From: Amoebophrya sp. A120
Taxonomy: Eukaryota; Protista; Dinoflagellata
DNA length: 64,000 nucleotides
Reading direction: 5' to 3'
Assembly (NCBI GenBank): GCA_905178155.1
Contig: CAJINV010000004.1
Coordinates: forward strand, 9,096,300 to 9,160,299
Shown here piece by piece: positions 90 through 62,700 of this stretch; within the stretch, counting starts at the first letter, position 1; every line of letters starts with the position of its first letter. Below the pieces are notes generated by a model. That model searched no databases. It had not been told where the DNA came from and worked only from the letters and a program-made list of their open reading frames with translations. The translations under genes and the position numbers were made by a program.

Positions 90-1590
90 GCGTTCGGGAA
101 ACAGACACAAACTTGGGGCAGAATGACTCCGCCAACACCTGGGTCGGAAAAGGGATCTTCATATCCGCCGAAGAAAAAAAAGAACTGCTGCGGCCGGAAA
201 GGCGAAATCAGTACAACCCGAAACGGCCGGACGAGTTCCATCGAATGCACCCGACTCTGTGGCTAGATACGCTGGAACGCGTGCCGATGCGGAAGGAAAA
301 CCATTTAGGGGAGGAATTTAGCCTAGCGTTCCATTCGGACCCGGTGTACGACTTACTCGACAGCCACAGCGAGGGGGAGTCGGAGTCGATCTATCCTGAG
401 TAAAAACGTACCCACACCAGAGTCAGGATGAGGATTTTGCAACACAAACCTAGGAGTTTTGTGAGTCACGCATGACAAGGCGCACTATGCAGTGTAGTGC
501 AGGTTAGCAAGTGCAGCCGCATCACAGATTCATCTGCTGATCCTGTTCACAGCATGACAAATTTCAAAACACGATTGGAAATGGCTCTCATGGGGATGCG
601 CATTACAAGTCTTCCTGTCTTATCGAAGGAAAAAAGTGATACAGTTACACACTACTTCAAAAATACCGTATTTTTTTTGGGTTAAACTAAAACATTTTTC
701 AACACTCTCCTCGCGCTCGTACCTGTTGAACTTTGATTTGTATGTCATGAGAAAAGGGTATGTTTAATTAGCTACGGTTGCTTCAGTTGACTATTCTAGC
801 TAAGGAGGCCAAAATCCCGATATCGCGGACCACGCCAAGAACGTGCTCTTCAGTCCCAGCTCCTGCAGCCCGCTGGCCCCACCTGGTGGGGCCAGCAGGC
901 GTCATACCGGTGGTCTTCGTGCTGGACTTGCAATTCGGAACCGACATCCAAACGGCATGCCTCCTTAGCTAGCTAGTTCAACATACAACTGAAGCAACCG
1001 TTAGCTACCAGCAATTCTAAGTACTTAAACATCGTGCATTCAGAAAAGAAACTCTTACCTGTGCGTCAAAAAATTTCATTCTTCAACCCAAAAAAAATAC
1101 GGTATTTTTGAAGTAGTGTGTAACTGTATCACTTTTTTCCTTCGATATGTCTTTGCAAATCTGCATTACAACTCTGGTGTGGGTACGTTTTTACTCAGGA
1201 TACGATCCCCACCTACGTCATCGACCGCGTGCGCAGGGAGCAAAATGACATGTCCCAGCGGGTATGCAATGCAAAAGCATCGTACTAGTATAAATTGCAT
1301 TACAGATTAGCCCAGCATTACAAATTGAATTTGTAATGCTGATTCACCTTGAGAAAGAGACTTGTAATGCATAAATGCAATTACTACGAGTGCGATACTT
1401 TTGCACAGGATAGCGGGAGTGCAACGGAGCGACGGTCGAGCCGCTGCGAAACTTTCGGACCAAAAGTAAGGAGGGCGGCGGGACCGGGAGTAGTAGTACC
1501 ACGATGAAAAGCAGAATGGAGGTGTCGCATTCCACTTCGAAGGGAAGCGGGCACGCGTCGAAGCGACAGCGACAGGCGAGTCCGACGTAG
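90..1590 (+). CDS. Hypothetical protein 'gene X', copy 1, 3' part (exons ~90-391, 1208-1262, 1418-1590)
   Basis: ORF 83-403 (..SVRETD..SEGESESI) continues in frame as PTYVIDRVRREQNDMSQRECNG..QASPT* after removing elements 392-1202 and 1263-1412 plus one TSD each. Confidence 0.7.
392..1202. mobile_element. Family-B TIR introner containing a nested element
   Basis: TATCCTGAGTAAAAACGTACCCACACCAGAG...CTCTGGTGTGGGTACGTTTTTACTCAGGATA; TSD CGATC. Confidence 0.92.
621..1147. mobile_element. Nested 527-bp MITE with perfect 63-bp TIR
   Basis: TIR 621-683 / 1085-1147 (TATCGAAGGAAAAAAGTGATACAG...); TSD TGTCT; absent from the equivalent element 8658-8936. Confidence 0.95.
1263..1412. mobile_element. Family-C TIR introner (150 bp)
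   Basis: TATGCAATGCAAAAGCATCGTACT...AGTGCGATACTTTTGCACAGGATA; TSD GCGGG; empty site at ~8992-8996. Confidence 0.92.
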
Positions 1591-3782: not shown

Positions 3783-5029
3783 ATGTCGTCCGCGCCTTCC
3801 TCCTCAATCCGGTCCAGCAGCGCATCGCTGCGATCCCAGATGAATTATGCGAAACCCTACCCAGTGTTGGTGCAGCCGCCCGTGATCGCGGTCCAACACA
3901 CCATGCCCACCGCGCCCATCCCCCGCCCCTGGATCCACGGAAAAAACGACGACGTGTGTTGTGCCTGCTGGGATCGTATCAAATGCAAAAACGTCTGGGT
4001 CTGGAAGATTCTGACACTTGTCATGCACGTTTTGCATGAGCCATGATGTCTGTGATGCATACCCTAGCAATGCAGATTTTTTGAGGGCTTCTTGATGCGT
4101 ATTCCGCTTGACAGATGCCTTCTCAACGTAGAAAAAATTGCATTCTGTTTGTTACTCATGCAATACAGATTTTTTTAGATTCCAAAAATAGCATCACAAG
4201 TTGCATTCTTCCAGACCCAGACACTTTTGCAATTGATAGATCGCTGCACCGCGCTGCCGTCGACGGAGACGCGCGACATTATGGAGTTCTCAGATGTTAC
4301 ATAGTCAACTGTTACATGAAAATTGTAATGCAAGAATGGCAATAGTGAAAGGGAAAAGATTGCGCGTTTTGCATTACAGGTTTGGAGCAGATTCTAATGC
4401 TATCTAGCGCGTCGAGAACTTGTCATGCGAAGCAGCTTGATCATGTAGTAGATATTGTTATTGATGGCAATTTTGCATGACAAATTTATGTAACAGTTGA
4501 GAGTGTAACGTTTGGGAATCCCATAGACATGGCGACCAACGGGTTACTCCGGATAAACTTCACCTATTGGGACGACCGGCACTGCTGCGCGTGCGGGCCG
4601 CACCCGGGGGTGGCGGAACAGGTACAGGATCAGCACTGCCCGGAGGAGGTCATTCAAGCGGCCATTGTGAACTGCGGGGGGAATCCAGTAATTGAGCTAA
4701 AGCAGGAACCTGAGCAACTAGAGAAAATAAACGAGGAGCCCGGTCGCGTTCTCGACATCCGAAAGGAACTAATCGACATTTGGGACGAGTACCTTGGCCA
4801 GGACGGGATGCTCTTTCACTGCTGGGTCACCATCACCTACGACGGTGATGGCCGGCCGCAGAAAAACCGCCACTTTCGCCGTTGGATCGCGTTGGCGTTG
4901 ACCCCGGAGCAGAGCGCGCTGCTGGCGGGGGAACCCCACATCAGCGGGGACGTGGAGGTGGATTTGTGTTGCGGTGGGGTCAACGAACTAGCGCTGAGTA
5001 TGCACCCGCCCAATGGCATGCTGTTCTGA
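3783..5029 (+). CDS. Cys-rich family protein, copy 1 (2 introners, internal in-frame deletion)
   Basis: MSSAPSS..CCACWDR|CTALPSTETRD|MATNGLLRINF..MHPPNGMLF; colinear with intronless paralog 29502-30425. Confidence 0.8.
3977..4238. mobile_element. Family-A TIR introner
   Basis: TATCAAATGCAAAAACGTCTGGGTCTGGAA...TTCCAGACCCAGACACTTTTGCAATTGATA; TSD GATCG. Confidence 0.92.
4280..4525. mobile_element. Family-D TIR introner
   Basis: TATGGAGTTCTCAGATGTTACA...TGTAACGTTTGGGAATCCCATA; TSD GACAT. Confidence 0.9.
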
Positions 5030-6727
5030 GTTCTCCTTTGGGGATGGGGGGTGAATAAATCCGAAAAATAACAAGAATACCGGACTGCAATATGAAAAAG
5101 AAAATGAATAAAATTGAGCAGAAGCATAAGGATAAGCGTGATAGGCACGCACTACGATTAGAATAGTACGCGCTGCCATGATACATCATAGCCATCTTGT
5201 TTTTTCTTGTGGAAAATGAACTACCGTGGACAATTTTTTTTTTTTTGACATTGAATACACAGGGGATTGACACATATATGTAATTTTTTTTCCGCAGACA
5301 GCTCTACTGTTGCGAGCAGTTTTCTGGTTTTTTTCGAAAACGTCGTTTCTAGTCTGTGCGAACCATTTAGATATTCACACTCGTTCTCACTTGATAGCTC
5401 TACCTTTTCTTGTATGAATTGCGCAGATAGAGATGAACCACAATAACAATATAAGTAGAAGCCGCACTCCAATTTTTTCGCAAGGCACATAATTCTTTCG
5501 TTTCTCTTTATTGTCGTCAACAAGAAGTAATTCTGCTTTTGTACTTGGATTTGTTTCACTTACTTTTGGGAATTTTTGTGCCTGAGGAGACGTTTTTTCA
5601 GGTTGCATGATCCCGAAATTGTAGCACGAAAAGAAGCAGAAGCAAAGCGCACTGGTTGATGTTGAATCAAGAAAAGCTGCGAATGACAACGAACAAAAGG
5701 AAAAGTGCTACGGTTATTTCACCTTGGTTTCGCTGCAGAGATGAGAAGCAAGAGCAAGATTTGTCCGCTTTCGTTTGATCCGGAAGCCAAGAACAATCTG
5801 CTCGACCATGATGCAGATCGGGAACAAGCCTGAGACAAGTCCATAGACAGATGCAGATACTACATCTCGTAGAACATAACGACGACGAGCAAAAGATCAA
5901 AGACGAGCCGCAACGTGAAAAAGGTCTAGTAGGATGGTATATTGTGACAGTTACTGGCAAGTAAGAAGCCCGCTCGTTGCGATCCGCCTTGTGTCTTATC
6001 GTGTATCGGAGTCGTGTGTTGCAAAAACAAAAAAGATCTACGTAGTCTCCAGTAGTGGCATATTGTCGTGACGGTGAAGATGAAGATCTAGTGTTAATGC
6101 GCAACTCGTCATCAAAGAGAAGAAGAAGAGCAAAAGCAACAGATTTCTATAAGTACTTCTGCTTCTGGTAGTTCGGTTAAACGAAAACAATCGAAGTCGA
6201 ACGCACATATTTGGCGGTCATTGATTCATGGTCGTGTCATCTGGTCGACCCGTCCTCTGTCATCGTGAACATTGAAGACTACAGCGGAGCCTCTAGTGTT
6301 TTGACGTACTAGATAAGCTTGTGCATGATTCGGCAAGATACTCTTGTTGCCCGCTTTTTCTACTTCTGCCTTACCAATAAAAATGAAATTTTGAATTTTC
6401 GCGGATGCTTTCCCTTTCTTGCCCTCAAGNCAAAAAAAAAAGCCAAAAAAACCCAGCGTTAGCCCCGCGCCGTTTTTATCTTGCGGGCGCCTTTTTGTAA
6501 AAACGCAGCAAACACGCAGACGCCAGAAAAATGCCGGAATCTCCGGATACAGTTGCGGCGTTTTTAGGCAAATTGCCCAAAATCACATAATCGACATTTG
6601 GGACGAGTACCTTGGCCCGGGCGGGATGCTCTTTCACAATGTGTTGTTGCACAGACATCATGGCCCATGCAAAACATGCATGACAAATCTCGCAATCTTC
6701 CAGACCCAGACATTTTTACGTTTGATA

Positions 6728-9169
6728 CGCCGGTGCATTTGACGATGTGAACGACATGGACCTCTCGGGTGCGGAGGATGAGGACCTCTTGCCCGGAGGG
6801 GTCGAGCAGGGTCCCCGCGCGGAATCCGAAACGGCGGTACTGAATCTGGACAAGATCCATTATCCTGAGTAAAAACGTCCCTACCCCAGAGTTGTCATGC
6901 AATTCTGCATGCTGAAGATGTTTCTCATGCGGAGCTCCATGACAAGCATTTACTAGTCGCGTTTCGGAGTTTGTCATGCTCCAATCAGCATGCTGCGCTA
7001 GATCTGTGATGCTGCTGCACTAGCTAAACAGGACCACACTACGAGGACAAACTTGTCATGCGAAACAACCACAGCTGGCTGATTTGTCTAGCAGATTGCC
7101 CATCTGGACTCTGGTGTGGGGACGTTTTTCCTCGCAATATCCATCCCAATCCGTTTATCAAGAACCGGGACCGCCTCTGCGACGCCATCATCAACTCGCT
7201 GAAGGCGATATCAAATGTAAAAATGTCTGGGTCTAGAAGAATCCGAACTTGTGACGCTGTCTCTGGATTCTGAAAAAAATTGTATTGCATGACCAGCAAG
7301 AGGGTCCAGTTTGTGCTACGCGGAGAGGGCATTTCTCATGCGGAAGGTGCATCAGGAAGCCCTCTAAAAGTCTGCGATGCTAGGTCATGCATTACAGGGA
7401 TCATGGGTCATGAGAAATATGCATGACAAATCTCGCATTCTTCCAGACCCGGACATTTTTGCATTTGATAGGCGACGTTGCCGCGCGGCGCGGGGAGGGT
7501 GAACCGGCACAGCATTTATGCATTGCAAAAATGTCTGGGTCTGGAAGGTTGGAACTTGTGATGCTAACTCTGGACTGCCCTTAGACCTCCGATGTGATGC
7601 TAACTCTGGACTCTAAAGAAATCTGCATTGCATGACCAGCAAGAGGAGTCCAGTTTGTGCTACGCGGGGAGGGCATTTGTCATGCGGAGTAGGCATCAGG
7701 AAGCCCCCTAAAAATCTGTGATGCTAGGTCGTGCATTACAGACATCCTGGGTCATGTAAAATCTGCACGACAGGGCTTGTATTCTTCCAGACGCAGACAT
7801 ATTTGCAATGCATAGCGTTCGGGAAACAGACAAGGACTTGGGGCAGAATGACTCCGCAAACACCTGGGTCGGAAAAGGGATCTTCATATCCTGTGTAAAA
7901 ACGTCCCCACACCATAGTTGTCATGCAACTCTGCATGCTTAAAATGTTTCTCATGCGGAGCCCCATGAGAAGCATTTTCTAATGCGGTTTGGAAATCTGT
8001 AATGCGCCAATCAACATGAGATACTAGATCTGTAATGCTGCTTAGCTGGCTCAAACAGCACTACACTACGCGTCCAAATTTGTCATGCGAAACAGCCAAA
8101 GCTTATGGATTTGTCTAGCGGATTTCCCATCTTGACTCTGGTGTGGGGACATTTTTACTCAGGATACTTCATATCCGCGGAGGAAAAAAAGGAACTGCTG
8201 CGGCCGGAAAGGCTATCAAATGCAAAAATGTCTGGGTCTGGAAAAGTGCAAGTTTGTCATGCTTGTCTGGCATGACTCGGGAATCTGTGTTGCATAGGCA
8301 CGAAAAGGCCCGCTTACCTGTCATACAAAAACAGAGTTTGCCATGCGGAATACGTAAGACATGGCAGCCAAAAAAATTGTCATGCATAGCTGCGTATTGC
8401 AGTGCGTCTATCTGTAACTTTTAGCATTACAAGTTTCCAGACCCAGACATTTTTGCAATCCATAAAGGCGAAATCAGTACAACCCGAAACGGCCGGACGA
8501 GTTTTTTCGGATGCACCCGACTCTGTGGCTAGATACGCTGGAACGCGTGCCGATGCGGAAGGAAAACCATTTAGGGGAGGAATTTAGCCTGGCCTTCCAT
8601 TCGGACCCGGTGTACGACTTACTCGACAGCCACAGCGAGGGGGAGTCGGAGTCGATCTATCCTGAGTAAAAACGTACCCACACCAGAGTCAGGATGAGGA
8701 TTTTGCAACACAAACCTAGGAGTTTTGTGAGTCACGCATGACAAGTCGCACTATGCAGTGTAGTGCAGGTTAGCAAGTGCAGCCGCGTCACAGATTCATC
8801 TGCTGATCCTGTTCACAGCATCACAAATTCCAAAACACGATTGGAAATGGCTCTCATGGGGATGCGCATTACAAGTCTTCCTGTCTTTGCAAATCTGCAT
8901 TACAACTCTGGTGTGGGTACGTTTTTACTCAGGATACGATCCCCACCTACGTCATCGACCGCGTGCGCAGGGAGCAAAATGACATGTCCCAGCGGGAGTG
9001 CAACGGGGCGACGGTCGAGCCGCTGCGAAACTTTCGGACCAAAAGTAAGGAGGGCGGCGGGACCGGGAGTAGTAGTACCACGATGAAAAGCAGAATGGAG
9101 GTGTCGCATTCCACCTCGAAGGGAAGCGGGCACGCGTCGAAGCGACAGCGACAGGCGAGTCCGACGTAG
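6728..9169 (+). CDS. Gene X copy 2, 5'-truncated, 6 introners
   Basis: Continuous spliced frame AGAFDDVNDMDL..LDKIH|PNPFIKNRDRLCDAIINSLKA|TLPRG..HS|VRETD..GIF|ISAEEKKELLRPER|RNQYNPKRPDEF..SESI|PTYV..QASPT*. Confidence 0.7.
6861..7139. mobile_element. Family-B TIR introner
   Basis: TATCCTGAGTAAAAACGTCCC...GGGGACGTTTTTCCTCGCAATA; TSD TCCAT. Confidence 0.9.
7209..7470. mobile_element. Family-A TIR introner
   Basis: TATCAAATGTAAAAATGTCTGGGTCT...AGACCCGGACATTTTTGCATTTGATA; TSD GGCGA. Confidence 0.92.
7517..7814. mobile_element. Family-A TIR introner
   Basis: TATGCATTGCAAAAATGTCTGGGTCTGGAA...CATATTTGCAATGCATA; TSD GCATT/GCGTT; internal 20-bp duplication. Confidence 0.9.
7887..8166. mobile_element. 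Family-B TIR introner
   Basis: TATCCTGTGTAAAAACGTCCCCACACC...GGTGTGGGGACATTTTTACTCAGGATA; TSD CTTCA; empty site at ~157-161. Confidence 0.92.
8214..8464. mobile_element. Family-A TIR introner
   Basis: TATCAAATGCAAAAATGTCTGGGTCTGGAA...CATTTTTGCAATCCATA; TSD AAGGC; empty site at ~199-203. Confidence 0.92.
8658..8936. mobile_element. Family-B TIR introner
   Basis: TIR of about 31 bp; TSD CGATC. Confidence 0.92.
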
Positions 9170-11357: not shown

Positions 11358-12585
11358 ATGTCGTCCGCGCCTTCCTCCTCAATCCCGTCCAGCAGCGCGT
11401 CGCTGCGATCCCAGCGGAATTATGCGAAACCCTACCCAGTGTTGGTGCAGCCGCCCGTGATCGCGGTCCAACACACCATGCCTACTGCGCCCATCCCGCG
11501 ACCCTGGATCCACGGTAAAAACGACGACGTGTGTTGTGCCTGCTGGGATCGTATGCATTGCAAATATGTCTGGGTCTGGAAAAATTGGAATCTGTATTGC
11601 GTGTCCTGCACTCCTGTAAAATCTGTATTGCGTGACCGACAAAAGCGCTAATTATTTGTCATGCAAAAACGCAGTTTCTCATGCGCATTACATATGAGTA
11701 AGCGTCCTGAAAATTTGTCATGCTTGGCTGCTCTCAGGAGTTGGCTCAATCATCGCCACTTAGCATCACAAGTTTCCAGACCCAGACATATTTGCAATGC
11801 ATAGATTGCTGCACCGCGCTGCCGTCGACGGAGACGCGCGACATTATGGAGTTCTCAAATGTTACATTCTCAACTGTAGTTACATGAAAATTGTAATGCA
11901 AGAATGGCAAAAGTGGAAGGGAAAAGATTCCGCGTTTTGCATTACAGGTTTGGAGCAGATTATAATGCTATCTAGTGAGTCGAGAACTTGTCATGCAAAA
12001 CAGCTTGGTCATGTAGATGTTGTTGCCAATTTTGCATGACAAATTTATGTAACAGTTGAGAGTGTAACGTTTGGGAATCCCATAGACATGGCGACCAACG
12101 GGTTACTCCGGATAAACTTCACCTATTGGGACCGGCACTGCTGCGCGTGCGGGCCGCACCCGGGGGTGGCGGAACAGGTACAGGATCAGCACTGCCCGGA
12201 GGAGGTCATTCAAGCGGCCATTGTGAACTGCGGGGGGAATCCAGTAATTGAGCTAAAGCAGGAACCTGAGCAACTAGAGAAAATAAACGAGGAGCCCGGT
12301 CGCGTTCTCGACATCCGAAAGGAACTAATCGACATTTGGGACGAGTACCTTGGCCAGGACGGGATGCTCTTTCACTGCTGGGTCACCATCACCTACGACG
12401 GTGATGGCCGGCCGCAGAAAAACCGCCACTTTCGCCGTTGGATCGCGTTGGCGTTGACCCCGGAGCAGAGCGCGCTGCTGGCGGGGGAACCCCACATCAG
12501 CGGGGACGTGGAGGTGGATTTGTGTTGCGGTGGGGTCAACGAACTAGCGCTGAGTATGCACCCGCCCAATGGCATGCTGTTCTGA
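11358..12585 (+). CDS. Cys-rich family protein, copy 2
   Basis: Near-identical exons to 3783-5029; two introners. Confidence 0.8.
11552..11803. mobile_element. Family-A TIR introner, different subfamily from 3977-4238
   Basis: TATGCATTGCAAATATGTCTGGGTCTGGAA...CATATTTGCAATGCATA; TSD GATCG/GATTG. Confidence 0.9.
11845..12084. mobile_element. Family-D TIR introner
   Basis: Homolog of 4280-4525; TSD GACAT. Confidence 0.9.
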
Positions 12586-14344: not shown

Positions 14345-14425
14345 CGACATCCGAAAGGAACTAATCGACATTTGGGACGAGTACCTTGGCCCGGACGGGA
14401 TGCTCTTTCACAATGTGCAACAAAA

Positions 14426-20503: not shown

Positions 20504-20509
20504 CTGCTG

Positions 20510-25565: not shown

Positions 25566-25617
25566 TGTCGCACCCGTGTCGCACCGGTGTCGCACCCGTG
25601 TCGCACTCATGTCGCAA
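25566..25617. repeat. 11-bp tandem repeat (TGTCGCACCCG-like, ~5 copies)
   Basis: Directly visible in the sequence. Confidence 0.85.
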
Positions 25618-26837: not shown

Positions 26838-26988
26838 TATGAACTGCAAAAGTATCGTACTCGTATAAATGCATTACAAATTTCCTCAGCATGAGAAATA
26901 AAATTTGTAATGCTGATTTGCCTTAACAAAGGGATTTGCAATGCATGATTTCCATACGAGTACGAATACGATACTTTTGCACAGGATA
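26838..26988. mobile_element. Family-C TIR introner
   Basis: TATGAACTGCAAAAGTATCGTA...CGATACTTTTGCACAGGATA; TSD CCGAT. Confidence 0.9.
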
Positions 26989-27050
26989 CCGATCCCCCGG
27001 CGGCGAATTCATGGCAAACAGGACGACGTGTGTTGCGCCAGTTGCGACCA

Positions 27051-48411: not shown

Positions 48412-49812
48412 ATGGCGATCAAGCTTTCCGCCAAGGAGGCTGCCCAGTTCGTGCAGGAGGCCCAAAAGTCCGCCTCCAAAAACTCCGCTACCCCGAACCC
48501 GTCTCCGACCGGACAGTTCTACGGGAAGTATGACTCCCTGTTCGAGACCTCCGTCTGGTCGGTCAACGAGAAGAAGTACACCCGGTACCTGCGCAAGCGC
48601 CAGGCCCGCCCCTCCGCCGCCGAGAATCCCCGGATTCTGCACATTGCGCAGGAGTACGCGGGCTTGCTGTTCGGGAAAAGCCGGGACCGGTTGAAAAAAA
48701 TCGAACAGAAATACGACGCATCAAATGCAAAAGTGTCTGGGTCTGGAAGAGCGCGCGACTTGTCACGCAGCTTTTCCATGACCCATGAGGTCTGGAATGC
48801 AGGAGCTAGCATGACAGATTCTGTGCGATCTCTCTCATGCTTATCCTGCATGAGAAACTCCCTCCAGAATTGGCCAAAACTGGACGACTTTTGGTAATCA
48901 TGCAACACAGTTTTTTGCATGCTTCAGATTTAGCATGACAAGTTGCATTCTTTCCCGACCCAGACATTTTTACATTTGATACGACGTGAAACTTGAAACG
49001 ACCGACACGGTGCTTGACCAAGCCGCGCTGGTTCTGTCCCCATCTTCCCCCCAGGACGAGATGATAACCGGCAGTGCGAAGAACAGCAAGTCCACAATTG
49101 GTGGAACGCCGGCCGCTTCCCCCGGCACCACAGCGAATTCGGTCGGGTCCCCGATGGATGTGGACGGCGAATTGAGCAACAAGAAAATCAAGGTGATCGA
49201 GTTGAAAATCGTCGGCGGGAACGACTTGGACGTGCCTCTGATCGTGCAGGAGTTTGTCTATGCGCAGGAAAACTACGACATTCCCGACTTGGGGTTTGTG
49301 CAGTCGCACCTGCAGGTGTTGAAAGACATTTCCAGGTCGACAAAGGCGAATATCACGATCGAGAAGGAGAAAATGAGTGAGAAAGAGGAAGCGGGGGAGA
49401 TGGTATCATAGGCCGGTTTCTTTGTTGTAGCATTCAACTTCAAACACAAACTCATATGGTTTAGGCTTCTTCTGCATGAGGATGAGAATATGAGAAAGCA
49501 CTTGTTCTGTACTGGGTTCTATCTTCAAATAAGTTTCTCGTGCACAATCACACCAAAAATGATCAGGTCGAGAAAGACCCCGCCCTGCTCGTTCAAAGCG
49601 GCGATATTAACCAGGCTGCGATACAACAGCAGCAAAAACCAGCCAGAAAAAGTTTCCTGCGGATTCGGGGACCGCGTCCGTGCGTGAACCTGGCGGTGGA
49701 AGCGTTGGATACCCACATGCTGTACTTCAAAATTTCCAAGGAGATGGAGGCCCAAATGCTACAGCTGAACGCATGTCGACAGGCGATGTTAGCACAAATG
49801 AACACGGTTTGA
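48412..49812 (+). CDS. KH-domain RNA-binding protein (FXR/FMR1-like); one introner and one GT-AG intron (49403-49566)
   Basis: KH-like ILHIAQEYAGLLFGKSRDRLKKIEQKYD|VKL; C-terminal IRGPRPCVNLAVEALDTHMLYFK resembles the end of FMRP KH2. Confidence 0.65.
48719..48981. mobile_element. Family-A TIR introner (CAT start variant)
   Basis: CATCAAATGCAAAAGTGTCTGGG...CATTTTTACATTTGATA; TSD CGACG. Confidence 0.9.
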
Positions 49813-50728
49813 TTGAAGAAGTTGGATTTTGGCATGACACTACTTTAAACTACTCTTCTATCTATGGTTGTGGTTCTACTGCTTCCTTCTTGAATCAACA
49901 AGAGGTACGTTTGTTTTGCGTTTTGGAATGGACACCGATAGTACGAGACTTTATGTATAACACCATGTTAAGACTTGACTCGCTTCTCCTGCGTACTTCC
50001 ATTGGTTGCGAAAGAAACGACAATTTTCAAAAAAAAACATCGGAATTTTATTTCCGTACTCTGAGGACCCAACAAGCCACCTGTTGCCATTTTTGCAACA
50101 TTGACATTCCGAGTAACAAACTTGCGGCGCAATTGTACGCACCTCTTTTTTTTGTGTTGCCAGTAATATCTCTGTTGCTGTATCGTAATTCGGCATCGGC
50201 TGGATGGAAGATGAACATCGAAGAGTGAACCTGCCAATCGACTTCGAAATCGTGAATCTGAATGATCATCATCGTTTTTATGCATCGCAGTTACAGATGA
50301 AAAATTGAATTTTCAGAACCAATGTGCAACCTCTTCGAAGTCGTCTTTATCGTATATGTCGCTCTATCACCCTTCGTAACTCGTCGATCGTCATGTTCTT
50401 CTGGTGGACGTAAAAAGTTGCCAATTTTTTATCGATGTTTCTCTACGATGATTGCCTTGGTGGTTCGTGATCGTATGTGAACATAAGTACAAAAATCCTT
50501 TCTTCACTTTCTAGGCGGGAAGGCGGACCAGTGGCTCGGAGGATATAATAAGATGTTGTCGTGCACTTAAGAGAAGTACTTGTTGACTAGCGGCGGCTAT
50601 AATTCTTATTCGGAACATAATGTTGAGCAATATCAGCAGGAGCTGCAGCAGTACCAGTAGCACTTTCTAGCGGTTGACTTCGGCACAGGTGTCAAACCCT
50701 CCTGCGAAGCAACAACAACCGCAACGAA

Positions 50729-53700
50729 ATGCAGGCCGACCACACGACTACCCGTCGTATCGCGCCGGCGACCAGGCCGCCATCAAATTCCACCGCAGCG
50801 GGAGGTGGAAGTAGAGTGTATTCGCGGCACCCGGGCTTGCGATTGGTGACGTCGAAATCTTCCTCAACAGACGATCAAAATCATTCCAAAGACAGCAGCA
50901 CGGTTGCCTCTGGCTCTGGCACGGAGCGTGAACCACGACGAGATAAAAACAGGACCACCTGCTCCGGCACAATGGAAAGCCACGAAACAGCGACAGTTCC
51001 GTTAGAGGATGCTTTTTCTAGTTTTCTCTCTTCGCATATGGAAGCGTCAGGTTTGAAATCGACAAAGTTGAAATGATTTGTGATGCATAAAACGGATGCC
51101 AGTTGTAACACAGCTTCCAAGTGGCACATGACAAATTTGGGTGAAACCGGAAACCAGTTTGTCTTGCTGTTTGGGTAAGGACGACGCCTTTGTCATGCTA
51201 CGATAGCAGCTCTATCGCAGACCGCAAACAGGCTGACAGTCGGCCTCACTTGCCACCCCTGCAACAGAGGCACTTCATGCCAGGCAATTTATGCATGACA
51301 AATCATTTCAACTTTGACGATTTCAGTCCTGACACATCCATATCGCAAAGGAGGAGAAGGATGCATGGACATCAGCTCGAGCCGGTTTCGGAAGACGAGC
51401 CGGTGAAGTTTCTATGCTCTGCAACTATTCGTACTAATTCTAATTGCAATCATGCATGACAAATGTTGTTTCTTAGGCAAATCAGCATTACAAACTCCAG
51501 TTTTCCTTCTGAAAAAACTTGTATTGCAATTCATACTAGTACGATACTTTTGCAATGCATAATTTCTGACTGACGACAATGACCACAAGAACTCCGTCTT
51601 CCAGCAAGACCATAGTGCTCAACATCTCGCAAGCAGCAGTGCGTTCGGCTTTGGCAAAAACAACAGCAAGCAGAGCAGCCGGGGGTTCAATTCTTCTTCG
51701 CGAACCAGTTCTCGGAATTCTTCGAAGATCAACACCAATAGCAGGTATGATCCCTCCGCGCACAGCAGCAGCGACGAACAGTCGCTGGCCTCTTCTGGTG
51801 CGTATTACAGTACTCGGGCGGAGCACCAAGTGGCAACCACTTCCGCGTCGCAGTCGGAGAGTGAAGGGGGAGGCTTCAATTATATTCGAGGGGCCGCGTC
51901 AGGAGGTGTTCTGGCTGCGGGAAGCAGGAGGCCGGGAGCCTCTGCTAGTACTTCCGACGTGACTACAATGTCAACTACCTTCTCTGCGTTGCGACCCATG
52001 TTGCAGACTGTGAGCAAACAGTTGGAGGGATCATCTGCTGGTGGTATAAATGTTGAAGAAGCAGAAGCAGGTGGGATGAACAAAGATAAGCAAGAGGCAG
52101 CACCAGCACACCTTTTCCAGCCGCAGCCCGAGCCGGCACCTATGGTGATTAAGGATAGGGTGTTTCAATTCCTGTCCTCGAAGACGACCGGTGGAGGATT
52201 CGCAAAAATTTTTGACGACGATTACATGACGGATAGGAACACGAACGGACGAGAACCACAAGCGGCGGCCACGAACAAGCATACAACCCGATTTATCGAG
52301 CAGACTTCAGGGGCTAGTGGTAGGGACCACGCAGCTGCATCTTCAATAAAGATGAACGACCGCGCAGACAAGAGTTCGCCAACCAAGCAAGAGAACAAGC
52401 AGCACGGCAGGCTGGACGTCGGTCTACTCGCGAAGATGGCAGAGGTGGTGAGTAGCAGCGAAGAGCAGGGTGATGATGTGGTGGTCAACAAGCGAATGGG
52501 TGCATCAACAAGTAGAAGTACTAGATCAACATCGTCATCTACAAGGCCAAGAGGTCTGTCATCTTCGCAACAGCGCCCTGCAAGGGCCGAAGGTTCCTTT
52601 TCCGCGACATCTTCAGCCCACCTCCGCGGGCCGCGTGAAGATCCTGACCCGAAGCTGGTAAAAGAGATTTGGTTCGAGAACAAACCGCGCACGCCTTCAC
52701 CGAGAAGACAGTCGGAAATAACCGGAAGAACGGACAGGCGCCAGCAGCTACCGAATATTGAAGATCACCACGACCTGCTGGGGGACTGGCAGCTCTGGGA
52801 CCATCTATCGTCCAACCCGCGTTACCGAAGGAAATCGCTTGCAGCTTCCGGGGAAAAGGACGAGGACACGGCATTCTTGGAAGATCGTCGTCGGCGTCTA
52901 CAACTTCAGGGCGAAAATAACAATGGCCGCGAAGGAGCGACAGCGTCGCAAAGTCAATCTAGGGACGAGATAAATAAAACCAGGACGAACGGATCGGGAG
53001 ATGAAGGCGGAGCTTCTGTTACGGCATCATCTCCAGAAGATGCCAAGGAGCAGTTCCGGCAGCTCGTGCGCAATGCGGTCCGCAACCCTCTGGGCCGTGC
53101 GGTGAGCGAACGGCTAGGGATCGAGCAGGAGTTCTACGCGGACATAATGTTGGACAGCAGCAGGCAGAGTGCGTCGATGCAACTCGATTCGTCGCACACA
53201 CATTTTTCTGCTCGAGGAGCTTTATCCGGAACAAGAACATCTGGCGCACCCAACTCCCACTGGAAAATTCGCAACGTAGTGCAGCTACGGGAAAGGAAAA
53301 AGTCGCTCTTTCCTCATGTTGACATTACGAGAAGTAGTCCGAAAAATAAACTCCGGAGCCAGCAAGGTGGACCACATCTTCAAGGGACGCACAGTGCAGC
53401 GACAAGTCGCGAAGAAGGAGAACAACCGAAACATCATGACCAGCTGCACCATCAAGTACTAGATGCCTCTCGTCAAGATGAACCTCAAAGTAGAACTCAA
53501 CATCAGTCGCATAGTAATATGAATTCTACTAAAACCGTGCAAGCGGACTGCGGCGGCACGGAGAACGAAGGGGGCACTGGGTCGTCCGGGGAAACGGAGC
53601 TGACCTGCGGCGCCACCGGCTCGGTGTCCGCCCGGGGAGAGGAACAGTTGTTGCCAGCAGCAGACACTGCAACTGCAGTGCCTAACCCGACGACAGCGAA

Positions 53701-56700
53701 TGAAGACAGCTGGTCGCCGCCGTTGCGAGGCATACCAGAGGGCCAGGACGAGAACAACAACAGCTCGTCGCTGGTGTTGGAGTCGCCCGGGTTCCCTGGT
53801 GGGCGAAGAGAACCGCAACAGGGGGAACAACTCCATCAAGGAGCTTTCTCCAGTTCTTCTTCTTCTTCCCAGCAAGGTGGCGCAGAAGATGTGCCAGCCC
53901 TGCACGGTAATTCTACAGCCACGGCCACAACCAGTAAAAATCCAACCGGAGAAGTTCTTCCTCTTGTTGACCAAGAAAACAACTATTCTGACCGCGCCAG
54001 TAACGTTTCGAAGAATACGGAGTTTTACCGCATAAACGCGGAAGATTCTCCCGGTACCAGTGAGGACGCGAGTATGCACAGCGACGAGTTTTTCCCCGCG
54101 AGCTTCTCCGCGGTAGAGTGTTTGGAGGACGCGCCGGTGGAATTGATGGAGCTGCGGTTGGCGGACGTTGCAGAGGACGAAGATCAAGAGGCTGCGCTTG
54201 CGCCGGAGGTTCTGTATGGAGAGGATAACGATAAAGCACCAGGCAACTCCTCGAGTTTCGCAGTCGCAATAGGAAATAAACAGCAAATTTTTCCAGGCAG
54301 TTCTCGAGAAGCTGAACCACCTCCGGGGCAGGACTACGTTGATATTTCAACCTTGAACTGCGTCCCTTTTTCCTTCAACAAACACAATCTGTTAGAAGAA
54401 ACGGTGCGGTTCGGCGGGAGGGAAGTGCTAAAATTATCAAAAGGAAAAATCCCCCCACCCCATATCGACATGGAAATCTGTGATGCCGGATTTGTGTACA
54501 CAAATCGGCTTTGCATTGTAGGAAGGCATCGCGGCCAGATCCCCAGGCTATGCAGGGGCGTATCGGTCTAGTTGTTCAGCATGGCAAACGGCTCCGCATT
54601 AGGCCCAACAGCATGACAAAGCGCCTCCATAATGGGGGCGAAGCTTTTGCCCTTGTCCTCTTGCAAGACAGACGTGATTTGTGACCTCAAATCAGCAACA
54701 CAAATTTTCGGAAACATGCCTTCTCGATATGGGGAGGGGGGATTTTTCCTCACAATAAAAATACCCGGAAGATTTTCCGACGATGACCAACGTCACCGAG
54801 TTATCCTGAGTAAAAACGTACCCACACCAGAGTCAGGATGGGGATTTTGCAACACAAACCTAGGAGTTTTGTGAGTCACGCATGACAAGTTGCACTCTGC
54901 AGTGTAGTGCAGGTTAGCAAGTGCAGCCGCATCACAGATTCATCTGCTCATCCTGTTCACAGCATCACAAATTCCAGCCCACGATTGGAAATGGCTTTCA
55001 TGGGGATGCGCGTTGCAAGTCTTTCTGTCTTTGCAAATCTGCATTACAACTCTGGCGTGGGTACGTTTTTACTCAGGATACGAGTGCCAGGTCTGGCTGG
55101 AAAAGTACCTGACCCCGGACGCGATAAATTTTGAAGATCCATGCTTTGGAAGCTTGCTGATGCAGGTGTTCGCGCTGTACCGAGTATTTCTGCACAGTGT
55201 GGAGGTGAGGTGTACTAGTAATAGAGATACAGTTGGATTTGGAAAACTGAACAACGGACGATCAGTTTCTGCAGAATCGGCACCTGCCTTCACTAGTGGT
55301 TGTACAACCAGCAGCGTCAACTACAACGATCCAATTTTCCTTTCCGCAGCGCGACGAATCGAAAGGGGATTTCAGTGCACTCTGCTCGCTATGCATTGCA
55401 AAAGTATCGTACTAGAATAAATCGCATCACAAATCTTGGCAAGAAGAAAAGTGGAATTTGTAATGCTGTTTTACCTTAGGAAGGAGATTTGTCATGCATA
55501 TTTGCAATTAGTACGACTACGATACTTTTGCCCAGGATACTCGCGCTCCTGTCCGAGACAAGGTTGAAGCAGGGGATAAATGCGAGGGATTGTCATGGTA
55601 GGAACTTTATCAAATGCAAAAGTGTCTGGGTCTGGAAGAATGCAACTTGTGATGCTGCATTTGGATTCCAAAAAAATCTGTATTGCAGGAGTACCAAAGG
55701 AAATGCAATTGTTGCTACGCTGAGAAGGCATTTGTCATGCGGAATACGCATCAAGAAGCCCTCAAAAAATCTGTATTGCTAGGGTATGCATCACAGACAT
55801 CATGGCTCATGCACGACGTGCATGACAAGTGTCAGAATCTTCCAGACCCAGACACTTTTACAGTTGATAAACTTGTTGCACTACATGCTGGACGACGAGT
55901 TCTTCGCTCCGGCAGAGGGTATGATTTCTCATCAAAAGGAAGCCGGTTCTAGTGCTGCTGTACCCGCCGATCGTGCTTTTTCAACATCGCAAGGCGAGTA
56001 CCAGCTTCAACAACTCGTGCCAGTAATGAGGAACAGCAGTGTGGACATCGATTCCAGCAGCACCACAGGAATTCTGCTTGATCCCACTGCTCCGACCACC
56101 TCCACTGCAGCCGCCCATCTACTTCTTCTCGCCCAGCAACTACAGAAAAACTTCCTGCAATTCGTCCGCGAGGAGGCGCTGCCCCGGGTGTTGCAACATG
56201 CAAGCCTGACCTCGAAATTCCTCAACAACCCCGAGGCGACCGTGTGGGGCGCGCCGTTTGCCGCGTGCATCTTGTCAAACAGCTTCCTGGACTTTTCCGA
56301 CGTAATTCGGACGCACGAACTTTTCGACCCGGCTGCAAACTTCAACGAACCAATTGGCCCGGCACGGGACCGGGCGCCGTTACTGTCCCGGCTGCTGCGG
56401 CTGGTGTTGCTGAAATGCAGCCGTGAGGTGGATAATTTTTCCTGCTCAGGTAGAAGTTGTTTATCGCAGCCTTTACTGGGTTCTCTTCTCTCTACTGCGG
56501 AAAGTAGGAACGCAAAAGCTTTTGCGACTCCTGTTGCTGGGGACCAGCAGTTCGCAACGGTCGTAACCGAAAACAAAAAGGAGCAGGTGATCGCAACGTA
56601 TCTTCCCTTGATCATCCGCATCCTGGACCACCGAACGTTTACGGACGGAATCAATTGGATCACGACCGGGGGTGTGGACTGGTGCGAAACGCCTCTGCTG

Positions 56701-59700
56701 TTGGCGATCGAGTTGGAATCGCTGGAGTTGACGGAAAGAATTCTGTATGAACTGCAATAGTATCGTACTCGTATAAATGCATTACAAGTTTCGATTTCCT
56801 CAGCATGAGAAACAAAATTTGTAATGCAGATTTGCCTTGGGAACAAGATTTGTAATGCAAGACTTGCATTTATACGAGTGCGATACTTTTGCACAGGATA
56901 TCCTGCTCCACCCGAGTTTCGACTGCGAGAAAAATCTGATAATTCCCGCCAGGGAGCGGTTTGTGGACTACGCACCGGTGGCGACGAGGACGTCGAGTGC
57001 AACTAGACCAGCGTTGTTCTTCGGCGCGTTTTCTACTTTATCCGCGACTAGACTCGATCTGAACCCGGTGAGTCGTCTCCTCGAGAAGCTCTCAGTCTGT
57101 AATCAGAGCTCTGCCTCTGTTCACCTAGCAGCACCGCATGATTTTCCTCCAACGGAGATGCAGCACCGCACGCGTGTCCTGGCGGAGATTTTGGAGTTGA
57201 TTCTAGATGCCTCCGGCTACGAAATGTTCCGGCTCGCGAAGATGGAGCGGGCGGAAGTATCTTCAGGTGCAAATAGAAATCAGATGCTCAACATCAACTA
57301 CATATGCAGTGCGAAAGTATCGTACTCGTATTAATGCAATAGCAATACAAATTTCCTTAGCATGAGAAATAAAATTTGTAATGCGGATTCACCTTTAAGA
57401 AAAAAATTTGTAATGCATGATTGCAATACGAGTACGATACTTTTGCACAGGATGCTACAAGACAGACAACCAATTCACTCCTGACGACCAGCATCAGGCG
57501 CTGCTGTCCACCTCCCCGAGGACATCACCACACTTCGCCTGGTACGACCGTCGGGTTTTGGCGATGAACATGTCAGCGCTGCGCCTCGCGACGCTGTGCG
57601 AGCGATACGAGCAAAGGCGGAAATTCGTGAAGTACTACAGCAGCACAATATACCACGAGAATGAACTTGACGAACAAAGGTCGTCAAACCTCGCGCCTGG
57701 TATGAGTAACGACACATCCAACCGGAAATCCAAATCCGTAGTTCCGGACATGAAGGCGATTATGGGCGGGCAGATCCAGTCCACGGAAGTTTTCGCAAGC
57801 AAAATTTTTCACAACGTCCGCAAAACGCACCCGAAAAACAAGGAGAAGGACCTCTTCCGCGAGGCCGTTCTGGAAGCGTTGGAGTACCGAGCGGCGACCC
57901 TGAAACGGAGGGCGCGGCCGAGGGTTTTGCGGCTGGAGATGAAGCAGGAAAGTTTGAAAATTTTGGGGAAGGATGAAACGGCTTCTGCTTTGAAACCGGC
58001 AGAGAAATTGAAGTTGGACATTTATCCACAGGGACGTCGAGACCACGTCAGGAATAATTCGGAAGTCTTCAAGAACAAAATAAGCAAGGATTTCGATGCA
58101 GGTGCTGGGAAAATTATCAAAATGAAAATCAACAAGCGGAACAAGCGAGGGCGGAAACCCCAACGGGACGAGGGAAGCGAAGTAGATGGCAACATCATGC
58201 TAGAAGAAGTTGATATCCTCGAGGGCGGGTATGAGGACGAAGTCCGAGATGCTACGGAGCACGCCGGGGATAAGAAGATGGAAGGAACAAACACATCACT
58301 GAATGAAAAATCCGCAGACGACTACTATCTCCAAAACGAAATCATCGAAAACCTGAAAAGCAGCGATATCGTCGACGTAGCAGGAGCTACGAATGAAGAT
58401 AATTATCTCCTGCAAACGAAAAAGGCAAAGAAGAAGCTGGCCCGAAAGCGCAACAAGGCCGACCACTGGCGGAGTTTGAACGACAGCAAGACGAGTCAGC
58501 TGACCACGCAGGAGTCCACCTCCGAGCTTGGTTCTTTTTCAATACAGGTGGAAGAGAGCCCGAGGCGGCGGGCAGAGGATTTGCTGAACCGGTACCGCCA
58601 GGAGGTACTTGGGGAGCAGGCAGAGGTACTGCGGGCAAGTAGACCAGAGAAGGAACACATCGTAGTCCCAGAGGTATCGTCGGAGGGGGAACAAATTGTG
58701 GAACGGGAACGGGAGAATCGTGAAGATGCTGAGCAGCACGACTATTCCTCCCTGAACGTCACGGATCAGGAGTCCATCGGCCCTTCAGCCTCCTTTGACG
58801 GGGGAGACGACTTCCGCGAGCAGGTGGAACACGTAGGGGCAGCAGTACTAGCGCAGCAAATTAATAATACGGCTGGAGGTGCCACCACCTCAGCCACGAC
58901 TACAGACCACCAGCCAGCATCGTCGTCGTCGTCGATCATCCTGAATATTGATCCGAAGGATGTGAGTGCGATACTCGCGGATGGCGAGGACGGTGAGGAA
59001 AACAAAACCAAAACCACTGCGATAGTTAAATCGCCAACCCGCGGTATGGACAAACTCTTCGGGTGTTTCTCTCGGTTGGTCTGCCTCGGGCAAGCGCGAC
59101 CAAACCCACTGAAGGAATTGCTGGCGCAGGTAGAGGGGAGAGAAATAAATGGTGTTTCTTCATCTGCGAACAAGAACGACAAAGACTCATTGTCACAGCG
59201 GCGATCCGCCAGCGCAGACATTAGCGCAAGAAGAGATCGTCTGCGAGAAGATGAACAAGAACGAGAAGATGCAGGAGCAATAAACAATTCGTCTGCAAAA
59301 AGGCGCAGCAAGAGCAGCAAGCCGTGGCTCGAACAAGGCAGTAGAGCGGAACAAACAACAGCATCTTCATCTTCAAATCGCGGTAGAGCCCATGACCGGA
59401 GCAGAGACTACTACAAGCGGATCGATGGGTCTGCGAAGCCGGTCAGCTTCACCACCAATCTGGACGACAATTTTTCCACCAACTCCGACGGCGCGGGAGA
59501 CGAGGACAGTGCGCTCGAAGAACTGGATCGGCTGGCGCTAGCCGAAGCGCTTGAGGAAAACTACAAGGCGCCTTCTGGAAGATCAGATGTACTGGATAAT
59601 AATTCACGACGTCAAGAGAGGTACGATCGCAAGAACCTACTCATCCTGCAAAACACACTGTTAGTACCTTCACAGGATAAATCACGCGGAACATCATCAA

Positions 59701-62700
59701 GCAATATTAAACCCAGCAGTAGGAGAACCAGCAAGAATCAGCAAAAGCGCGCGTCGCGGGCGGGGTCTTTGGAAACCAGTGTGATTGAAGAGGACCAGGA
59801 GTTCTATCCGCCAGAAGATTACGACGAGGATCTTCAACTGCATTTTCATCCGATGTCCTCAAATAAAACTGTCGGCTCATCTTCAAAAAGCGGCCACGAG
59901 GATCATCATCTTGAAAGCAGCTACAAGGTTAATATCAACAAATCCCGGGGGTCGTACTCGTACACTACTAGCGGCACAAATTTCGGTCGGGTGATGCAGA
60001 AGAAAATGCTCCAGGCGGAGACAGACGACGAGACGAGCGAGATTTCTCGCATGCTGAACTACACAACGGAGGAAGACACGTCGACAGTGTTAGACGGGGA
60101 AGAGTTCTTCTCTCACCAGAATCTAACGGATGAGCAAGAAACCGACAACAACAAGGACACCACGATAGAAGGACTTAGTGCCACAACTGCAGGACCTCCG
60201 AGAGCGAGCGCGGCGGAGGCTGTCGGGTCATCATCGACTTCAAAGGAGGGCCGTGAGGACGGGCAGGAGAGAATCTCCGGCACCGCAGCTGGCTGTGTAG
60301 GGCGGGCAGGCAACAACTATCACGAGCAAGCGGGGGGGTCCTCGTCTAGCACGGCGAAGACGAGACCCGGCGCCTTTTCTACAAGTACAACAAGGAGACC
60401 TGTTCTCGACAACAAGAAACGGGGGCTGACCAGTGAAGAGACATCGCTCTTGAAAGAAATCACCAGTGGATGGGAAAACATAACAAGCGACAGGAACAAA
60501 GAAGAGACCACAAAGCAAGTGGATCTTCTCCTGCAAAGCTACCCAAACGACCTGCTCGTTCTGCAAGATTCCCGCGGGACTGAGATCGTCAGGGTCGCCA
60601 GCCACCATTTGGAGGGCGACATCAGCCTGCAGAACTGCGACTTGCACGGTGCTGTGAATCAATTGAAAAGCCAGCAAAGCTTCCTTCCAAGAAACCAACT
60701 CCTCGTAGCACCGAATCTGGTGGTCGACAGCAACAGGAACATGACGGCGCTGTCGTCGACGAGGAACAGATCTGCTGCATCCTGCTCCGAGATGAACCAA
60801 ACCTCCTCCACTATGCGAGGAAACAATTTTGTCACGGTTTACCTCCTTCGGCCGGAGCACGGGGTGAGACTGCGGTACGACCTGGACGAGGGAATTCTCG
60901 GGGCAAGAGACATCAACTTGTCGGAGGAAATATGCATTCGCAAAAGTATTCGTACGACGTATAAATCGCGTGACAAATTTTCTCAACAAGAAAACTGGAA
61001 TTTGTCATTCCGATCGAGGTAAGAAACACAAACAGGATTTGCAATGCGTAGCTGCAATATTTTTTTTCTACGAGTGCGATACTTTTGCAGTGCATAGGAA
61101 GTTTCCGCAAAGGAACTGTTCCAGAAAGGGATGAAAATCTACGACTTCCTATCGTATATAGAAACGTCCCCATCCAAGAGTTTTCAAATCTGTGATGCTA
61201 GAAACAGCATGATATGCTAGATCTGTGATGCTGCTGAACTAGCTCAACAGGGTTACACTACAAGGACAAGGCTGTCATGCGAAACAACCATAGCTGGTTG
61301 ATTTGTCTAGCAGATTTTCCAACTTGATTCTGGTGTGGGGACGTTTTTACACAGGACACTTCGGACATTTCGAAGAGATCTCGTCTTGTTCCGCGGCGCA
61401 GGCGGGGGCTGGCGGGATGATAAACGATGATGCGGCACCAGCCCGACTGGAGGTAGGTCATCATACCCTGAGCGGAGGAGGAGGTCCTCCTGTCTTGTCT
61501 TCCAGTAGTGGAGATCTTCATGCGGCCTCCACAAGTGGAAGTGGCGGTGCAAACGTGACGGACGGGGCAAGCGCAAGAACTACATCCTCTACCACTTCCG
61601 CGACGTCTTTGACCCCAGTGGTCGAACCTCTCGCCCTGTTGGAAAAAAACCTGCAGGAACGGTGGCGGGCGGGGACAACAATATCAAGCAGTTCGAGTTG
61701 TAGACCTTTGTGGATCCGGTTTCAGGTCCAGCCGGTGCGGAAGGTATTGACGCTTGCGAAGAAAATATGCAAGAAAAAAACTATGTGGGTGTAAGTCTGT
61801 GATGCAGAAATAAATGCAAAACTGTTACACTTGTCATGCTGGATCCGCGTCATAGGCTACGTTCAGTACGTGTTTCCACGTACTAGCTGCGCATGACAGA
61901 TTTTCCCTGTAATGCAAAACGAATTTGTGATGCTGCTCTTCCTTACAAAGTTACACTAGCACAGTTTTTTTCTTGGATAGAAAGCGGACAAATTCCCGTT
62001 TTCCTACCTCCACCGCAATGACCCGTCGCAGTTTGAGGAGAGCATGAGCAGTGCTGCATCTAGTAGTAGAGTTGCGTTTAACAGTTCTCATGGGGAACAA
62101 GAAGTACAAATAGACAGAGACACCAGAGAACGCGAGCTGTTACAGTTGCAAGCGTTGCACGGAAACCGTGTTTTTTCTGCGTCCGTTGAACAGCAGCAGC
62201 TACGGGCAAGAAATAGTAACGATGAAAAGAAAGAGAATATTAAAGACGGCAGCAATCCGAATCCGCAGATGAACAACATTCGCCCGGGGGACCGTATCGA
62301 GGCGTTTACCATGCCGGATGGAAAAAGGTACCGGTTCGACAGTGGCGAGTACGCGCACCGACAGATTCTCGAGCGGATTCGACCGTTGGAGGTGGAGTTT
62401 GTGGAGGAGTTTGGGGACCAGTTTTCGTTTTTGCAAAGTGTGCAGAAATTCGTTTCTTCCGGTTCCTCAAAACAGAAATTCGTTGCGTCCTCCAACGGCA
62501 GTTGTCGTGGTTTCTTTCACGTCGCGCCCATCTGGAACCCGTTTGCGGCGCCGAAACCAGCAGGAGGAGTTGTAGATGACCTCGTAAGAACTACCGGCAG
62601 CGAAGCAAAGGAACATCTTCAAAACGACCAAGACGGGTCGGCGTTCATCTCTGTTGAGACCCAAATCAGCAAACTCCGCTCCGAATTCAATATCCGCTTG

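Follow-up and report, generated by a model that had tools for sequence, protein, structure and literature searches.

Which molecule reads the short motif that recurs inside the introners of the dinoflagellate Amoebophrya sp. A120, and in what process does it serve? The question is raised by a stretch of 64,000 nucleotides (contig CAJINV010000004.1, positions 9,096,300 to 9,160,299 of the forward strand; hereafter the window), a piece of eukaryotic DNA in which the genes on the plus strand are broken up by inverted-repeat elements of 145-320 bp. According to the text of PMC7789003, introners make up 17% of the A120 assembly, no transposase was found and U1 was not detected. The introners of the window share an internal motif, TGT(C/A/G)(A/T)TGC, arranged in arrays that are phased with the DNA helix. 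These arrays are likely the binding sites of a predicted protein that binds double-stranded DNA and likely acts in transposition, a reading to which a probability of about 0.6 is given.

Distribution and form of the motif

The element catalogue was built blind to the motif, on TAT..ATA ends, similarity of the terminal inverted repeats (TIRs) and a 5-bp direct repeat. From 45 candidate rows five were withdrawn (three alternative ends and two weak pairings) and one exact duplicate was added by hand, giving 41 elements, 34 of them non-redundant. The family letters (A to H, A2 and N) are those of this analysis and may differ from the letters of the original prediction. The octamers TGT(C/A/G)ATGC and their reverse complements are concentrated in the introners, as had been predicted, with 132 occurrences in 10,030 bp inside and 16 in 53,970 bp outside; five of the latter sit in truncated pieces of elements and 11 are true background occurrences in about 53 kb of host DNA. 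Element interiors contain 105 octamers, against a mean of 2.3 (maximum 7) in 500 dinucleotide shuffles, and TGTVATGC occurs 133 times window-wide where 6.9 are expected. The scarcity claimed for other sequence was also found: the motif is absent from the three GT-AG introns used as controls, all on the plus strand (45382-45555 in the otubain gene, 45756-45914 and 49403-49566), and from the nested element at 621-1147.

An unseeded ranking of k-mers placed TGTCATGC on top, present in 8 of the 10 family labels, and the fuller motif is about AA(A)(T/C)(T/C)TGT(C/A/G)(A/T)TGC. The motif produced by unseeded expectation maximization was rejected, the two strands having merged into a pseudo-palindrome, and a seeded weight matrix trained on the window elements was used instead. 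Matrix sites of at least 10 bits number 154 in 8,092 bp of elements and 12 in 45,443 bp elsewhere. The four to ten copies per element estimated by eye proved too many: the exact count is 0-6 (median 3), and the matrix gives 1-9 at a threshold of at least 7 bits.

Further copies, family relatedness and conservation

A scan with the family B end, covering 13 of 64 parts, returned 157 stretches, which gave 148 loci (759 kb with overlaps); among the matches listed (80 of 157) all are on JACKZZ01 contigs. No long unique sequence is common to the loci and the window, and identity between the elements of the two is 74-94%. They contributed 315 further elements, with family B oversampled by design, and the resulting 349 elements fall into 25 clusters. 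The motif was identified in all 13 multi-copy families, five of them absent from the window, with a median of 2-6 sites.

The families had been described as unrelated, and for part of them this holds: with motifs held in place and the remainder shuffled, 37 of 78 family pairs align at z<2. Seven of the 78 align at z>6, these being D-E-n6, G-n8, G-F, H-n9 and B-n11 (D-E 14.9, F-G 6.5). TIRs and interiors appear to have been reshuffled among families, so that both words of the original prediction, unrelated and convergent, apply only in part. Convergence is not needed, because the end type is common to all families and the interiors of several are related by descent; maintenance of the signal, the other half of the claim, is borne out by constraint on the core bases.

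This constraint was measured in two ways. Core columns are 0.80-0.96 identical and other interior columns 0.49-0.83, the core being the more conserved in 13 of 13 families (sites defined on the consensus; family B represented by 60 of 173 copies), so that the refuting outcome named beforehand, a motif no more conserved than its flanks, did not occur. In trees of nine families the intact core changes at 0.15 of the trinucleotide-matched background on internal branches and at 0.39 on terminal ones, the corresponding ratios for the TIR being 0.20 and 0.50. Internal branches show 70 core changes where 456 are expected; core T5 changed 59 times on terminal branches and 7 times on internal ones, and the degenerate position of the motif changes at 0.9-1.1 of background. 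CpG decay was rejected as the origin of the motif: at CpG, private change runs at the background rate, and matching by trinucleotide does not abolish the deficit. Being constrained relative to background, the motif is maintained and not merely inherited; it is under purifying constraint, strongest on the branches that left many copies.

Length changes private to single copies were also recorded in families B, A and H, and are mostly insertions of 3-7 bp with few deletions.

Spacing and helical phase

Measurement of spacing periodicity, suggested with the original prediction, gave a clear result: inter-site distances peak at a period of 10.4-10.6 bp. Same-direction sites of the window cluster at 30-33 bp (9 pairs vs 1.6 expected, p=0.001 allowing any 4-bp window), and the same range is enriched in seven held-out units (7 vs 1.0, p=2e-4) and in all 15 units together (18 vs 2.9). 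A pair at 31-33 bp is present in 13 of the 15 units and in all eight clusters of relatives. In family B the pair spacer is 30-32 bp in 138 of 146 cases, its sequence being variable and its length tight. Weak half-sites were identified at +14 inside the 31-bp pairs.

The position of the array relative to the element end is likewise phased. At 23 family ends the inward-facing, end-proximal site lies 37-39 bp (nine ends), 45-49 bp (eleven) or 57-60 bp (three) from the terminus, and with one end per family the phase gives R=0.84 (p=2e-4 with the period scan). The homologous interiors of n6, D and E place the first site at 38, 48 and 58 bp, respectively, and the only large subfamily shift in family B is from 47 to 38 bp (47 copies). 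Converging sites show offset peaks at 5, 14, 36, 46, 57 and 67. An open period scan over 7-20 bp at 8 bits peaked at 10.4-10.6 in all three orientation classes (p 0.001-0.011); at 5 bits two of the three classes retain this peak and the R-F class peaks at 15.5. At the family ends no rule of the 12/23 kind was seen between left and right spacers.

Double-stranded DNA as the probable substrate

Gene direction was called for 190 of 307 elements (check in the window: 25 plus, 2 miscalled minus, 5 uncalled). Orientation relative to transcription is balanced, with 48:45 in family B, 13:11 in A and 6:6 in C, and site counts are equal in sense and antisense copies. With orientation so balanced, an RNA signal specific to one strand is unlikely. 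Family C is informative here: its consistently shared sites all point the same way, and the RNA of this family therefore contains either the motif or the complement; the motif-to-motif pairing probability is 0.05.

The original prediction had offered internal pairing that compacts the hairpin as one function. This was not borne out, given the low pairing in family C and mirror sites lacking covariation in five of five families. In family B covariation of mirror sites amounts to 41 of 145 against 65 when shuffled, and covariation at the free position is absent in each of the five families tested (best p 0.066). Predicted pairing is raised in motif cores (0.65-0.83 vs 0.56-0.65 for other interior bases), which is expected wherever inverted copies exist. 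Mismatches in the TIR arms, G-U compared with A-C, gave no sign of selection at the RNA level (105 vs 86, p=0.19). Equal orientations and mirror copies without covariation indicate that the signal is likely read on double-stranded DNA, and a 10.5-bp period together with indifference to strand is what a protein on one face of B-DNA would give.

A probable role in transposition

The constraint is strongest on propagating branches and the phase is tied to the element end; both support transposition as the process served. The protein would be a transposase acting in trans, with an integrase-like DDE enzyme as the lead candidate, or else a host cofactor, and would occupy several sites along one helical face. 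Once bound, it would place the cut at the TAT ends or stimulate it, as the Ac hexamers or the internal sites of the P element do, and families keeping the array would multiply. For removal from RNA the main guides would be the symmetric TIR hairpin and the 5-nt repeat, and not the motif. Long frames are interrupted by four motif-poor TAT elements with imperfect target site duplications (TSDs), and become whole again when the element is taken out precisely (673+189, 477+85, 374+54 and 91+337 aa), which suggests that removal can work without the array; the removal of these four is presumptive, and pseudogenes would look alike.

Several points weigh against this role. No binding protein was identified, and integrase or transposase hits were absent from 82 long locus open reading frames (ORFs), from 50 ORFs of long elements and GC-rich regions and from 10 window ORFs; Farhat et al. 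report none in A120 either (text of PMC7789003). No cognate autonomous element with the same ends was identified in the 759 kb of overlapping loci or in the window. The TSDs are perfect in both TAT elements that are truly nested (N and L014:1641-1751), but neither has the motif, so movement without it is possible. Only 5 of 412 TAT elements are without sites, in a relaxed catalogue that includes about seven false or double pairings, and two of these five are nested, which suits a splicing licence better. The ratio of core to background change stays at 0.38-0.42 in copies with a damaged TSD or TIR, so selection after insertion is possible. As for the phase, held-out families give a weaker period result, with R-F pairs not significant, and of the 15 shared length variants of at least 3 bp seen inside families 14 fall out of phase; because neither pair distances nor related families are independent observations, independence is overstated in the phase tests. 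In view of the out-of-phase variants and the weaker held-out support, the phase is to be taken as a preference in successful lineages and not as an absolute rule.

A number of candidates were discarded during the search for longer or nested elements. The 2.2-kb "long TIR" candidate in L022 is two inverted family H copies; the apparent nestings in L012, L017 and L071 are false pairings of neighbours and that in L001 is a double call. The interrupted ORF of L027, integrase-like by eye, has no Pfam hit and no relative but itself. The family B end was found in neither viral contigs nor prokaryote genomes, and the 26 viral hits of the A and C ends, with no similarity to any family consensus, were dismissed as chance. 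The comparison between exonic and non-exonic elements was underpowered, with 14 of 312 lacking an open frame. Motif-less exonic elements are those at L027:2386-2653, L019:3379-3581 and L065:15170-15321.

That the motif is shared, constrained and phased indicates that one DNA-binding specificity serves many reported families. The motif is a concrete bait for finding the protein, with a built-in control (a shift of 5 vs 10 bp), and, examined genome-wide, it can show whether transposition, the removal of introns or the two together are what the code serves.

Alternative explanations

The motif may mark the element for excision from RNA, provided that this mark is read on DNA. In that case a DNA-binding protein would coat the introner on the gene and license its removal from the transcript, a splicing or cut-and-ligate activity being recruited during transcription, alone or besides transposition. 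The motif is missing from both truly nested TAT elements, neither of which would itself have to be removed, and from three others among about 410; the core ratio does not rise with proxies of age, elements have no boundary sequence signal, U1 was undetected in A120 (text of PMC7789003), and a helical phase relative to the ends would suit boundary marking. Against these stand the four motif-poor elements in restored frames, if removed as presumed, a constraint that relaxes on terminal branches as much as that of the TIR, and a count of two nested cases, one of them picked in the original prediction. The licence is on balance rather unlikely. In a stronger form of it, which is doubtful, the protein that reads the phased array on the chromosome, and not on the RNA, would set the element ends and have the element, together with one 5-nt repeat, removed from the nascent transcript; if this is true, the spread of the elements and an intron removal independent of U1 and blind to sequence would both obey one DNA code. 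We consider it distinctly improbable that a host chromatin or transcription protein binds the motif and protects, packages or targets the elements (for example to GC-rich exons) without contact with the transposase. Phasing at 10.5 bp also suits wrapped chromatin, coding-like flanks were found in 84% of 386 elements against 45% of random positions, and no motif-bearing element is nested in another in the window or in loci L001-L148, as if such sites were occupied or avoided. The motif is, however, near chance in host DNA (the 11 background octamers in about 53 kb; 12 matrix sites per 45 kb), the phase is tied to the element end, and GC preference alone may explain the exon bias (as treated in PMC9860276).

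The two remaining explanations are much less probable. The options that accompanied the original prediction included an action in RNA, either as inverted-copy pairing or as the site of an RNA-binding protein. Motif cores are indeed predicted to pair above other interior bases, and some families show predicted pairing between mirror copies (0.58 in A, 0.59 in D, 0.69 in n8); family C, scarcely paired and inserted 6:6, the missing covariation in five of five families and the equal site counts in sense and antisense copies speak against it, and the modal spacing of 31-32 bp fits B-DNA and not the 11-bp RNA helix. An RNA role is thereby very unlikely and largely refuted. Were the motif a passive relic, inherited from tandem or foldback repeats of an ancestor and now without function, this would accord with the homologous interiors of several families, with the half-sites at +14, which hint at an old 32-bp repeat unit, and with the match of some element termini to the motif. 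The relic is refuted by the conservation of the core in 13 of 13 families and by its deficit of changes on internal branches, unless that conservation is an alignment artefact, and spacers have diverged in sequence and not in length; such a relic is accordingly the least credible of the explanations considered.

Ends, insertion and removal of the introners

The ends of the elements carry the A120 introner signature (TAT, seven variable bases and three or more A). Among 341 elements chosen on TAT..ATA only, end positions 11-13 are A in 88-95% of ends; exceptions are families D, E, F and n6, with TCAG, CAAA or CACA where others have the A run. The boundary direct repeat matches at five of five bases in 302 of the 341 and at four of five, the minimum accepted by the search, in the other 39. 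The element search gave no false positive in 301,633 shuffled bases, and TSD bases show no bias. Paralogous empty sites with a single repeat copy exist, so the elements, which lie in exons, are insertions; being short, non-coding, repeated and provided with TIR and TSD, they fit the definition of miniature inverted-repeat transposable elements. Removal at non-canonical junctions was observed in the one element bridged by a contig, the family B introner at 48719-48981 (263 bp, minus): a contig of run X10 lacks exactly 268 nt (48710-48979), corresponding to the element plus one 5-nt repeat, and this transcript-like contig also lacks a GT-AG intron. Other elements would be removed likewise. No element was bridged by contigs of runs X5 and X6. 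On 44500-64000 the reads of X1, X3, X4 and X7 gave genomic contigs and repeat noise with no usable splice joints, X7 showing only partial matches (90-95%).

At end positions 4-10 the seven variable bases are unlike between the two ends of one element; they mutate at background rate or faster and form a small vocabulary common to families. Insertions avoid AT-rich DNA, flank GC being below 45% in 10 of 312 elements and in 310 of 1,271 random positions. A family B element occupies exactly the same site in three paralogous genes (3977-4238, 11552-11803 and 27051-27305), the site being empty at about 29690. These three are 60-69% alike and differ in orientation, and the flanks of the first two are 97% identical, which suggests that one introner was replaced by another or that the target was reused. 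Same-site pairs were too few or too similar to reveal selection after insertion.

Introners of the window

For the introners listed here, plus and minus strand denote the orientation relative to the reference of the family. Family A comprises eight introners on the plus strand: 1263-1412 (sites 38R 56R 73F 104F; empty paralogous site near 8996), 20708-20853 (3 sites), 26838-26988 (4 sites), 32273-32437 (degenerate left end), 55390-55539 (3 sites), 56746-56900 (4 sites), 57303-57454 (4 sites) and 60931-61096 (no exact octamer, 3 matrix sites). Two more are on the minus strand, at 39997-40141 (4 sites) and 51413-51561 (3 sites). The degenerate, A-like element A2 (33088-33283, plus) has no exact octamer, one weak site and a TSD of 4/5.

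Family B on the plus strand includes 7209-7470 (6 sites; duplicate 18864-19125), 7517-7814 (298 bp with an internal duplication; duplicate 19172-19469), 8214-8464 (5 sites; duplicate 19869-20119; empty paralogous site), 11552-11803 (both termini being motif matches), 27402-27663 (5 sites), 37753-38017 (5 sites) and 55608-55869, which has the mirrored layout 44F 75F 129F 168F 184R 216R. On the minus strand, besides the bridged element, are 3977-4238 (6 sites), 27051-27305 and 38607-38875.

Family C was identified on the plus strand at 6861-7139 (6 strong sites in one direction; duplicate 18516-18794), 7887-8166 (6 sites; duplicate 19542-19821; empty paralogous site near 160) and, shortened, 61150-61358 (4 sites), and on the minus strand at 54802-55080 and 8658-8936, the latter in opposite orientation inside a plus-strand gene. 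A further 279-bp member at 392-1202 (minus relative to the family reference; TSD 5/5) hosts the nested element N and is 99% identical to 8658-8936, which is without N. All members of the other families are on the plus strand: D at 4280-4525 (4 sites, F R F R) and, at the same site and 91% identical, 11845-12084; E at 22928-23211 (upstream in the PPR-repeat gene; 4 sites) and 16665-16948, a copy at a duplication breakpoint with the left TSD lost; F at 51037-51342; G at 54435-54757, with two 32-bp same-direction pairs; and H at 61766-61979 (5 sites).

Element N (621-1147) has TAT-N7-AAA ends, a 79-nt TIR, a 5-bp TSD and no motif. Its insertion point is the spacer between two motifs of its host that form a 31-bp pair. 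Of 31 terminal bases 28 agree with family H members, and the element contains an internal inverted repeat and several TAGCTA copies. Longer TAT-like elements with telomere-type repeats were identified at L054:2279-2760, L058:15316-16038 and L048:2009-2335, the first two bearing by their ends a repeated near-variant of their own, GGTGATGC. GAGAGG-type repeats occur in L018:505-1608. The intergenic inverted-repeat element L022:11419-12256, with another end type and no motif, is a natural non-introner control.

Genes and duplications of the window

Over 144 aa one protein fragment of the window matches, at 100% identity, a protein labelled Amoebophrya sp. A120; identity to an A25 protein is 45%. 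Among the genes are one with PPR repeats (23213-24730), partly duplicated upstream, and one for otubain (Peptidase C65; 44949-46140), which has GT-AG introns. Intergenic blocks reach 73% GC at 42900-44400, 46650-48150 and 24950-25950; the eight longest ORFs tested in them gave no Pfam hit, and Rfam gave no match anywhere in the window. A 24-base coding stretch of a tandem gene family occurs in seven copies (4775, 6593, 12331, 14367, 16449, 18248 and 20514), five of which are short fragments located where rearrangements join. At 16665-16948, 20314-20502, 6652-6727 and 18293-18382 the breakpoints of segmental duplications coincide with an introner or lie inside one; the family E copy begins exactly at its breakpoint, and C and B copies are truncated.

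Comparison with known systems

The elements of the window are members of the class of A120 introner elements, described in the text of PMC7789003 as many families of about 240 nt with TAT, seven variable bases and AAA at the ends, short direct repeats and non-canonical junctions; they match in ends, direct repeats and junctions. The motifs described there are the terminal inverted repeat together with the direct repeat only, and the motif strings gave no hit in its text supplement (text only); an internal motif, a spacing rule and a helical phase are absent from that text. A120 family lengths in the rows of PMC12130899 that were covered (for example 149, 209, 234, 252-261, 278, 305 and 317-322 bp; 41 of 58 A120 rows) match families of this study, and in its main text "subterminal" and "binding site" do not occur. 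Its supplement 8 lists A120 family 38, classed like others as "TIR DNA, Unknown", with "5-bp TSD, TA/TA Termini" and integrase-like homology, which makes this family the best lead for the enzyme. In the literature searched neither the motif nor its spacing is described for introners, a novelty on which published figures and supplements could bear; as far as searched, this is a previously undescribed internal code in a known introner class. The nonconventional introns of euglenids, as presented in the text of PMC11282704, are likewise closed by TIRs, flanked by TSD-like repeats and joined at non-canonical junctions, but have another end consensus and no phased internal motif described in that text.

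Among transposons, the Ginger/Tdd group (PMC2836005, as far as its text describes) includes TDD-4 and TDD-5, which make 5-bp TSDs as the introners do; Ginger elements have TGTNR termini and mostly 4-bp TSDs with sequence bias, whereas the introners have TAT termini and unbiased TSDs. The TSD of 5 bp and not 8 bp places the introners outside hAT and P elements, whose internal sites the array resembles. Maize Ac/Ds elements (text of PMC3260210) also contain several internal copies of a motif, the subterminal AAACGG hexamer, bound there by the transposase, and their non-autonomous members share little else; some mobile Ds1 elements lack the hexamer, like the motif-free element N. They differ in their 11-bp TIRs, 8-bp TSDs and motif, and binding is proven there and predicted here. 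The Drosophila P element (text of PMC7776569) has a similar design, with a TIR of about 31 bp followed by an internal 10-bp site and with spacers of 9 and 21 bp likened to the 12/23 rule; it differs in its 8-bp TSD, its single site per end and its known THAP transposase, the introners having 3-6 sites throughout the element and left and right spacers that are often equal. At the level of sequence, the introners share with Ac- and P-type arrays the feature that characterizes both, a repeated short internal motif conserved in mobile lineages.

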